From Mobula hypostoma (taxonomy: Eukaryota): a DNA stretch of 64,000 nucleotides. This document shows positions 11,419-12,834 of the stretch, in pieces. The notes below the pieces were generated by a model, which was given only the letters and a program-made list of their open reading frames with translations, searched no databases and had not been told where the DNA came from. Position 1 is the stretch's first letter. Every line of letters begins with the position of its first letter. The stretch lies in contig NC_086107.1 in NCBI RefSeq assembly GCF_963921235.1, positions 99,760,001 through 99,824,000 of the forward strand. The letters are read 5' to 3'. A program made the position numbers and the translations under genes.

Positions 11419-12834
11419 TCAGGCCACCACTACAGCTCGGAGCCCCCTGTTCCGTGTCCAGGGCCCCGCTTCTCCTCCTTCCTGATCCTGCCGTAACTCA
11501 GACTGCCCACAGCTAGCCCTCCCCACTACACCTGACTCAGTGGGAGAAGGGCCAAAGGTCTCTTCCCCAATCATGGAGAAGTTAGCAAAAGGCAGCATGT
11601 ACCACATGTGCAGCACATCATCCTTTGAATCCATATCCTTCCTCATTCCCTCGATTGGTAGCTGCTGTTTGAGTTTCTCCAAACTGAAACATTTAGCCGG
11701 GGCTACCCCTTTAGCCTCCTGTAGTCGAGACGTCAGCTTCTTCAGGGACTCCTTCAACTCTCGCCACAGTCTCAGCAGTTCTGACTCACGCTTCTTGGTC
11801 ATCTCAATCTGGGACACAGTTACCCCACCAGCTTCTTCCACCCTGACCTGAAAAGCAGCAGTTAAAGAATGTTCAGCCTCCGGTTGTTTCTTCCTGAGGG
11901 CATCTCCCAGGTCAACTTTCAGTTTTTCCATTTCATTTAAACTTGCAATAGTCACCTTCAGGTTCCTTTCAAACATCCGCCTCCCTTTTCCCAGATCTGT
12001 CCTCCATTTCTTTACCTCCTCGGGAGTGTAGTCAAACTCCCCTCCCTGGGCTCTCGGTTTTCTGTTGATCTTAGTCAGAACACTTCCTTGATCTTCCCCA
12101 ACTTGCAAGTCTTCCAATCTGTTCTGAATCGACGTCTTGAGTTTCTGTTGATCCCTTCGAAGGTGGGTCATTGTTTCTTCTCGCTGGATTAATTCATCAG
12201 TACATGACCGCAGTGCGGTGCAAATCCCCTCTCTTCCCTGTGTCTCATTCAGGTTGATGACCTGGGTTTCCATCCCCAGGTCCACCACCATCTGTCCCAA
12301 CACCAGGAAGTTCAACTGGTATGTCAGGTCATTTTCCTCACATTGCACCAAACTCCTCCGGCCAAAAACTCCTCCACATTTGACACTTCGCTTCAGTCGC
12401 CCGGGCTCAGCCACTCGCCTCGCCTCATAGTCCCCCCAGGCGAATCCAAGCTCTAGGCGGTCATCCACATACGTCAAAACTCCACACACCTTCACTTCCC
12501 CCATGGTCTTCCTCATGCCCCGCGGGAAGGATGCAGGGGCTCCGGATATGCCCTTGGGCATCTTTTCGGATCGGAAGAATCCTAGGGAACTAGTAACGGC
12601 CATCTTCAGCTCAACAGCTGCACTCCTCGGGATCTGGCAACATCCACCCCTCAGATGCAGCACATTAAACCACATCGCATAATCCACACACACGCTGCCT
12701 TCATCTTCCACGCCGCTAGGGTCCAGTTGCCGCGACCTCTCTCTCACTGAGGTGTCTTCAGCGGTCAACTCCCCTCCCTCGTGGTAGTTCGGAGCATCTA
12801 CTAAGAGGGTCTCACCCTCAGCTACTTTCCCCAA
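11419..12834 (-). CDS. 471-codon chimeric ORF: degenerate RT + myosin-rod-like coiled coil + Gypsy pol tail
   Basis: aa ~46-150 are RT-like (CVDY, [13 protein letters not shown], LGFF...[12 protein letters not shown], YVDD at 12460-12471). aa ~161-395 are myosin-tail-like ([39 protein letters not shown]). Expression unknown; the start codon is TTG. Confidence 0.75.
   Translation of the reverse strand: [471 protein letters not shown]

Follow-up and report, generated by a model that had tools for sequence, protein, structure and literature searches.

A non-autonomous Ty3/Gypsy retrotransposon family of batoid rays with a probable captured MYH16 rod fragment in place of its integrase

Introduction

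Classical retroviral oncogene transduction is a capture of host messenger RNA (mRNA), and plants have non-autonomous long terminal repeat (LTR) elements, maize Bs1 among them, that carry pieces of host genes and yet amplify. Here we analyze an LTR element of the ray Mobula hypostoma in which a fragment of a myosin heavy chain rod is embedded in the coding sequence. The closest relative of the fragment is MYH16, the jaw-muscle ("superfast") sarcomeric myosin heavy chain. The element lies in a stretch of 64,000 nucleotides, hereafter the window (RefSeq assembly GCF_963921235.1, contig NC_086107.1, positions 99,760,001 to 99,824,000 of the forward strand), and all window positions are counted from its first letter. 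A preliminary description of the window had already proposed that a spliced, MYH16-like mRNA was incorporated into the element, and we have followed up this proposal with database searches, phylogeny and comparison with other copies in the same genome.

LTR-mediated retroposition by a double template switch was described by Tan et al. (2016, Genome Res, PMC5131818), where maize Bs1 is also named. In the part of that study considered here, a partial intronless host mRNA replaces an internal part of an open reading frame (ORF), with element sequence on both sides, as in the ray element, and the chimera can retropose again as a pseudo-LTR element; repeated retroposition of the ray chimera is apparent from 855 candidate copies and from nine of nine sister loci. 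The cases set out there are young, of single or low copy number and with measurable microsimilarity at the junctions, whereas the ray chimera is old, occurs in several genera and in some 10^3 copies divided into subfamilies, and is too diverged for microsimilarity to be recognized. Crocodilian endogenous retroviruses (ERVs) that carry KIT-ligand or nectin3 from host mRNA (Chong et al., 2014, PMC4299795) resemble it, in the sections cited, in that a viral gene gave way to spliced coding sequence of the host, the element became replication-defective and the capture preceded host speciation. According to the same sections, env was replaced in one case (nectin3) and nothing was lost in the other (KITLG), the nectin3 insertions number six, and whole ORFs are under purifying selection. 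The ray element, in contrast, is of Ty3/Gypsy type, its integrase was lost to a structural coiled-coil fragment and its evidence of selection is weak. Elements of the maize Bs1 type belong to a different kingdom and took up different genes. We know of no plant-type gene-capture LTR element with a myosin rod. The ray element differs from the known cases in copy number, age, kind of cargo and the gene given up. A search of the full-text literature, with subscription journals and Repbase outside its scope, returned no paper in which a retrotransposon of cartilaginous fishes is linked to myosin or MYH16.

Results

A myosin rod fragment within a retrotransposon polyprotein

The main ORF of the window copy (P0001, 472 aa, 11419..12837, minus strand) is present as first described, with all the peptides quoted from it. 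Remnants of reverse transcriptase (RT) and RNase H run in frame into 208 aa derived from a myosin rod (11650-12273). The preliminary description had made the myosin part longer, ~235 aa with five ordered myosin blocks. Four of these five blocks are real and in order, as judged from both phmmer against PDB and the alignment, whereas the first 27 aa belong to a remnant of RNase H. They include ENDLTYQL, which had been equated with the myosin motif EKNDLQLQ and instead matches the RNase H motif of two other elements of the genome, the sister copy L052 and the autonomous Gypsy element L057 (E=0.004 against L057).

When the 235 aa were compared with the PDB chains by phmmer, 12 of the 14 sequences found at E<=1 were myosin-II heavy chains, the best being Myosin-4 (E=5.9e-7). 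The matching patches are collinear (query 47-180 on myosin ~977-1105, then ~1145-1187, then ~1385-1425), a pattern unlike the merely generic coiled-coil matches that had been named as a possible outcome. The sister copy L052 gives a gap-free high-scoring segment pair (HSP) of 120 aa with residues 881-1000 of Solea myosin-16 (40% identity, E=3e-23), and the best full-length protein matches are teleost "myosin-16-like" sequences (32% identity, E=3e-12). Large protein databases contributed seven near-length relatives and 34 representatives. In five of the proteins (P0002, P0005, P0008, P0017 and P0022) the RT part and the myosin part stand within a single chain, and several relatives retain myosin pieces that are missing from the window copy. 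N-terminal to the rod fragment there is no motor domain or neck, and remnants of RT and RNase H are found upstream instead. The ORF of the element is not a myosin gene; the rod fragment is embedded in a transposon polyprotein. Set beside MYH16 itself, the element lacks motor and neck, has a partial rod with deletions and remains below the threshold of the Pfam family Myosin_tail_1 (see Discussion).

Donor paralog and spliced origin

In order to identify the donor, we have used a maximum likelihood (ML) tree (LG+G4, 26 sequences, 226 reliable columns, none dropped) in which the non-MYH16 references were MYH7B, two MYH7-like fragments and one invertebrate sequence only. The 11 element segments formed one clade (99.8/100) with the Narcine protein at its base. 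This clade is sister to gnathostome MYH16 (96.6/98), represented by gar, bowfin, teleosts, coelacanth, turtle, mammals and the host, and MYH7B forms a separate clade with the two MYH7-like fragments (98.7/98). A donor of the MYH7B/MYH7-like type was rejected, the constraint costing 11.0 units of log-likelihood (lnL) with p=0.024 in the approximately unbiased (AU) test. Tree and AU test together point to MYH16 as the donor type, as had been suggested, and to a single capture event. The rod fragment is 37-56% identical to MYH16 and carries residues specific to this paralog (e.g. LKMTI..LNEME..KVDLEEVI.K).

The MYH16 gene of the host (L056, at C36:112.72 Mb) has exons with 58-84% identity to the corresponding parts of Solea myosin-16. 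Six of its exons could be mapped with AG/GT sites, with introns of 568-1,775 nt, and they read …ELHQ/KTLDD…IQE/VEDNW…ILK(K)/KDMEI…KEHQ/SRIEE…MRAK/VEKQR…TVSQ/ (a slash outside brackets marks a junction). Aligned to this gene, the window copy is continuous across four junctions without extra DNA, TVSQ/IEM among them, and L052 and L053 also cross four junctions, including KEYQ/A(Q/R)VEE in a part deleted from the window copy. As the element is intronless across junctions of host MYH16, its source was spliced RNA, and the claim that the blocks span several exons without an intron is borne out. The internal deletions of the element copies do not coincide with exon borders, which indicates later deletions and not exon skipping.

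Other myosin genes of the same genome were considered as donors and rejected. No tblastn match to the segment came from the intron-rich MYH genes at C45, C36:126 Mb, C68:25 Mb and C80, probably all four of non-muscle type, the sole match among them being at chance level (E=0.58, L042). The myosin cluster at C68:15 Mb and the gene on C2 match the segment at about 30% only. A multi-exon myosin-II gene (G000:C45:100185652-100217058), without a tblastn match to the segment, is found on the contig of the window, ~360 kb downstream; given the copy number of the family, this proximity looks coincidental. Long matches to Myosin_tail_1, up to 407 positions and 432 bits and with several in-frame stops, were seen at C18:48745523-48746731, C50:30689110, C184:304888 and C157:172388. 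They have the appearance of processed pseudogenes or retrocopies that derive from another myosin and do not belong to the element family.

What the myosin piece replaced

The sister copy L052 (C5:224.56 Mb) is much less deleted than the window copy, to which it is 73-91% (mostly 78-84%) identical in nucleotide sequence from gag and protease (PR) to 65 nt into the 3' LTR. Its PNMA-type Gag (4.1e-7) and its RT_RNaseH (2.7e-11) both pass the Pfam cut-offs. The RNase H motif reads ERNYPTHKLNFLAL in L052, and ERNYPTHKL is found in both L052 and L057. The myosin part of L052 starts ~25 nt past the end of RNase H, continues to myosin residue ~1150 and then jumps to ~1400-1432.

The autonomous L057 has a complete set of pol domains for comparison (RVT_1 8.5e-34, RT_RNaseH_2 7e-34, Integrase_H2C2 7.7e-15 and rve 3.5e-13). 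The window element matches it in four places, namely the gag linker with protease, the RT palm, the RNase H remnant and a tail from pol ~722 onwards. This last match (SSEDDDSDVWYLFPLADSLVPGEETPGPSITESG in the alignment of the two, E=9.7e-9) lies in the C-terminus of L057 that follows the integrase, and the Gypsy pol tail does resume downstream of the myosin part, as first described. Integrase is absent from both the window copy and L052, and L057 has Integrase_H2C2 and rve at the same position; the family is for this reason a non-autonomous Gypsy derivative, an incomplete member of the group. To judge from these alignments, MYH16 residues ~881-1432 have taken the place of the integrase exactly and in sense orientation. 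The rod gained amounts to at most ~550 residues, against ~540 integrase residues lost, and within the window subfamily the reading frame is kept at either end. The preliminary description had RNase H and the integrase core replaced together. This holds for the integrase; the loss of RNase H and of much of RT in the window subfamily is due to secondary internal deletions.

A side observation concerns L057 itself (G000:C76:3021500-3028000). From ~4200 on, the 3' end of its pol ORF enters a long tandem array that is open in three frames, with the repeated peptides GEGVAEPPVFQPGLG, RVLQSRLYSSRDWG and CCRAACIPAGIGGG.

Anatomy of the window copy and its insertion site

The element occupies window positions 10771-14238 (3,468 bp) on the minus strand and is nested in a long interspersed nuclear element (LINE) on the plus strand. 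Its features, and the parts of the LINE, are as follows, in the direction of the element; target site duplication, primer binding site and polypurine tract are abbreviated TSD, PBS and PPT.

14239..14242, minus strand: TSD on the 5' side, CTCA on the minus strand; the LINE flank begins at 14239 according to the empty-site joints
13855..14238, minus strand: 5' LTR, 384 nt, TG...CA ends, 93% identical to the 3' LTR
13834..13851, minus strand: PBS TGGGGGCTCGTCCGGGAT, an exact 18-mer that starts 3 nt past the 5' LTR
12940..13287, minus strand: gag C-terminal linker and protease region; tblastn to aa 25-141 of the upstream ORF of L057, 53% identity, E=1.5e-25
12838..12840, minus strand: TAG stop private to the window copy, splitting an ORF that is continuous in sister copies
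12389..12711, minus strand: remnant of the RT palm (YVDD) with fingers and thumb deleted; matches L057 from aa 470 on, E=2.5e-22
12280..12369, minus strand: remnant of RNase H, 50% identical to L057 RNase H (E=0.004) and collinear with that of L052
11650..12273, minus strand: rod fragment of probable MYH16 origin, aa 189-396 (208 aa), five collinear blocks with internal deletions, intronless and in frame
11422..11649, minus strand: C-terminal (post-integrase) tail of pol, continuing the frame of the myosin part; aligned to aa 722-768 of L057 pol, E=9.7e-9
11419..11421, minus strand: stop of the ORF
11298..11339, minus strand: peptide RSRRVKKLPDRLAY, present in the sequence, in the 3' untranslated remnant; a putative pol-tail motif according to the preliminary description
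11148..11160, minus strand: PPT, the purine run GGTGGGGGGAGAG as read from the sequence, abutting the 3' LTR
10771..11147, minus strand: 3' LTR, 377 nt, TG...CA ends
10767..10770, minus strand: TSD on the 3' side, TTCA on the minus strand
9234..10766, plus strand: endonuclease part of the host LINE, interrupted by the element; its RT part resumes at 14239 and runs to about 15330

That this is a genuine LTR element, as had been stated, is clear from these parts. The LTRs are direct repeats with TG...CA ends, flanked by a short TSD and accompanied by a PBS next to the 5' LTR and a PPT next to the 3' LTR, the arrangement of Ty3/Gypsy elements, and Pol has RT followed by an RNase H of Gypsy type (above the cut-off in L052, as remnants in the window). 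An alignment of the two LTRs over 387 positions has 360 matches (93%), 18 mismatches and 9 gap positions, and the 4-bp TSD has one mismatch (CTCA against TTCA). The PBS, which we take to be of the tRNA-Pro type, has a single match in the window, where 100 shuffles predict 0. In 4 of 4 public sequencing runs, contigs join 10763-10766 directly to 14238-14241. These joints come from uninterrupted copies of the LINE elsewhere and give independent evidence of where the element begins and ends. The runs yielded only unitigs of 100-270 nt, which carry no information on transcription. The ORFs of the window agree, as the LINE frame reads DKFVLV/(K/R)KMRNGRV straight across the insertion site.

Upstream of the 472-aa ORF there is a frame of 199 aa (12838..13437) that covers the gag/protease region and gave no Pfam match. 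The stop at its codon 200 is found only in the window copy, and P0002 has Y at this place. The catalytic motif of the protease (window 13060-13140, minus strand) is DPG, where L057 has DTG, as would fit a protease without activity. The window copy has lost the fingers and thumb of RT, the greater part of RNase H and roughly half of the myosin stretch. In most of the sister copies L002-L010, the 3' LTR aligns to the window LTR as two pieces with ~310 nt extra between them. This stretch is missing from both window LTRs (10771-11147 and 13855-14238), so that the window copy descends from a short-LTR variant. Around the LINE there are further fragments of retroelement ORFs (8294-8779 and 15289-15816, both on the minus strand, and 16208-16941; peptides e.g. 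LWSCPLLKKFWKDIF and MFWSCSILEQFWKSVF), and the region is a nest of repeats.

Copy number, taxa and age

The preliminary description had suspected a multi-copy family. With the 611-nt core of the segment, a first look at the 3.48-Gb genome of the host itself gave 855 candidates, and the 40 of them that were scored were all full-length at 94-100% identity. A query of 287 aa from Solea myosin-16 returned 2,334 candidates, and the 136 that were scored fell into 124 intronless stretches at 34-50% and 12 true MYH exons at 65-74% identity; many of the former lie inside open frames of 300-824 aa. The nine sister loci examined all align to the window element through the internal region into the LTR, and the family may be put roughly on the order of a thousand copies. 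Its subfamilies have lost different large parts of the rod. Some sister copies have long ORFs from the gag remnant through the myosin part (at least 779 aa in L008, 673 in L007 and 637 in L004).

Named relatives of the element type are annotated proteins of Mobula birostris, M. hypostoma, Hypanus sabinus, Hemitrygon akajei and Narcine bancroftii, so named as "myosin-16-like", "putative uncharacterized protein MYH16", "myosin heavy chain, cardiac muscle isoform-like" or "myosin-7B-like". The family is present in Mobula, Hypanus and Hemitrygon, and probably in Narcine. A protein of Hypanus sabinus annotated as "succinate dehydrogenase assembly factor 3 isoform X1" (P0020) includes a part that matches aa 131-209 of the myosin segment at 62% identity, probably an exonised copy or an error of the gene model.

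The LTR pair of the window differs at 18 of 378 aligned bases (4.8%) and sister copies differ pairwise by ~5-7%. Compared with host MYH16, synonymous sites are saturated (pS 0.79-0.92; pN 0.28-0.34), and this saturation together with the presence in two batoid orders makes the capture old.

Selection on the coiled coil

For the analysis of selection we have used 10 copies, which were chosen by similarity to the myosin part itself. Pooled pairwise pN/pS by the Nei-Gojobori method (NG86) was 0.78 for PR, 0.87 for RT and RNase H (RT/RH), 0.43 for myosin and 0.81 for the tail. NG86 is biased here by a strong transition and CpG bias, and each biallelic site was instead counted once against a neutral expectation matched to the mutation spectrum. 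The resulting omega was 1.27 for PR, 1.15 for RT/RH, 0.66 for myosin and 0.94 for the tail, so that the raw myosin value of 0.43, which could be taken for strong selection, shrinks to 0.66. Polymorphisms that create stops numbered 8 against 13.1 expected, most of them singletons, and this was not significant (p=0.09). Between the window and an older subfamily dN/dS is 0.48-0.69, about the neutral baseline of NG86, and among copies within the older subfamily it is 0.35-0.49 against a neutral baseline of ~0.6.

Hydrophobic heptad positions remain hydrophobic in 63-100%. We rejected this as evidence of selection because NTN codons mutate mainly to NTN codons, and the retention is about what the codon structure predicts. 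Copies of the window subfamily have decayed neutrally since their burst, and the protein sequence itself is under little constraint. The frames that stay open in several lineages point to selection on translatability in the transposing lineages, and evidence that the coiled coil is functional is weak.

Discussion

We consider it highly probable that the window copy belongs to a non-autonomous Ty3/Gypsy family of batoid rays whose founder captured ~1.6 kb of a spliced MYH16 mRNA in exchange for its integrase. The most likely route would be two RT template switches between the RNA of the element and a co-packaged MYH16 mRNA. The host piece begins ~25 nt past the end of RNase H and stops just short of the C-terminal tail of pol, and the product would be one polyprotein composed of gag remnant, PR, RT, RNase H, myosin rod and tail. 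Having no integrase, the chimera presumably relied for its mobility in trans on autonomous Gypsy relatives, which are abundant in the genome, and it would then have been amplified to about a thousand copies and have diverged into subfamilies with different internal losses. The myosin piece may most simply be a passenger, the reading frame rather than the exact sequence having been kept open while the element transposed.

Several observations weigh against this account, and some of them favor rival explanations. MYH16 residues ~1215-1390 are kept by no examined copy, and we infer a contiguous capture of 1.6 kb from the union of the copies. No autonomous parent was found among the 150 scored of 188,434 candidates, where the best non-self RNase H matches reach 61-73% to L052, and the one autonomous element inspected, L057, is a structural reference only. 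The Narcine protein, known as a protein alone, is placed from the tree and shared derived residues only. The Pfam family Myosin_tail_1 (PF01576), named in the preliminary description as a check, had no match at E<=1 on the window segment nor at 0.01 on the sister copy L052; the Narcine protein P0026 reaches 28.9 bits, under the gathering threshold of 38.1 bits, and the window ORFs otherwise returned only weak generic coiled-coil families and a sub-threshold RVT_1 (E=0.075). Taken at face value these profile searches would speak for a chance or generic likeness of coiled coils, or for a chimera of the assembly. Such an origin is extremely improbable in view of the gap-free HSP of L052 (E=3e-23), the paralog-specific residues, the bootstrap of 98% with MYH16 and junctions that recur in all 40 copies scored as well as in proteins of four further species, and the failure of the profile is a matter of sensitivity or bias filtering, not of absent homology. 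The tree, for its part, does not put the elements beside host MYH16. They fall outside the whole gnathostome MYH16 crown, whose monophyly without them has 96.7/97, and forcing them beside the host gene costs 13.1 lnL (AU p=0.052, borderline acceptable). Nor is their identity to host MYH16 (37-56%) higher than that to coelacanth or macaque MYH16. This is what would be expected if the capture had taken place in another host lineage or from a lost MYH16-like paralog, with horizontal transfer or deep inheritance afterwards. We regard such a history as improbable. The branch of the elements is long, attraction to the base is expected and a plausible cause of their position, and the host constraint is not rejected at 5%. 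Among the named hits, element-type matches come from batoids only, and the Narcine copy is basal, as vertical descent predicts.

The spliced source can also be reached through DNA, if the element recombined or was rearranged with a processed MYH16 pseudogene made by a LINE, and no template switching took place. The intronless state is explained just as well in this way, LINEs abound in the genome, and pseudogene-like myosin sequence is also present, such as C18:48745523-48746731 with 407 contiguous profile positions and 6 stops. We nevertheless judge this origin very improbable, for the replacement is precise, sense, in frame and integrase-sized with element sequence on both sides, the 3' junction of the window copy has no poly(A) or other LINE hallmark, and the pattern is that of LTR-mediated retroposition as far as it is laid out in PMC5131818. 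More weight has to be given to a variant of the preferred capture in which the coiled coil was retained as useful, as an oligomerisation module on the gag-PR-RT remnant by which the defective RNA or protein enters helper particles, or as a spacer whose translation shields the RNA, although we think it unlikely. The myosin part alone has an omega of 0.66 (binomial p=0.044; Fisher against the other parts p=0.042, uncorrected), unlike a pure passenger, and dN/dS within the older subfamily lies under its neutral baseline. The two fusion junctions are each in frame, and the founder of the young subfamily kept an ORF of at least 779 aa (L008) despite saturated synonymous sites; on a rough reckoning, the element-side branch lengths of the tree should have introduced several to about a dozen stop mutations into 195 codons. 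These p-values, however, are marginal, and the copies were picked through the very segment under study. The comparison of window and older subfamily is about neutral, stop polymorphisms are not significantly depleted, heptad retention follows from codon structure, each subfamily has its own large rod deletions, and annotated proteins are ascertained for open frames. A more specific form of the idea, in which the integrase-less element co-opted the rod, and retained it for very long across batoid orders, as a translated, dimerising part fused to the gag-PR-RT remnant that aids entry into helper particles or the stability of the RNA, is in our opinion doubtful and a little less likely than useful retention in general; a selfish element would in that event have made a piece of muscle protein serve in its own replication machinery.

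With capture by a retrotransposon and subsequent amplification as the preferred account, the ray family is a clean vertebrate case of LTR-mediated mRNA capture that has grown to about a thousand copies and persists across ray lineages; the animal captures in the cited parts of PMC5131818 and PMC4299795 are described as rare or low-copy. Cross-silencing of the true MYH16 at the RNA level appears unlikely, because synonymous sites are saturated. If they are not masked, the ORFs of the element inflate counts of the myosin family, orthology tables and expression analyses in batoids. The family also offers a system in which to study whether a captured coiled coil persists through selection acting on a selfish element.

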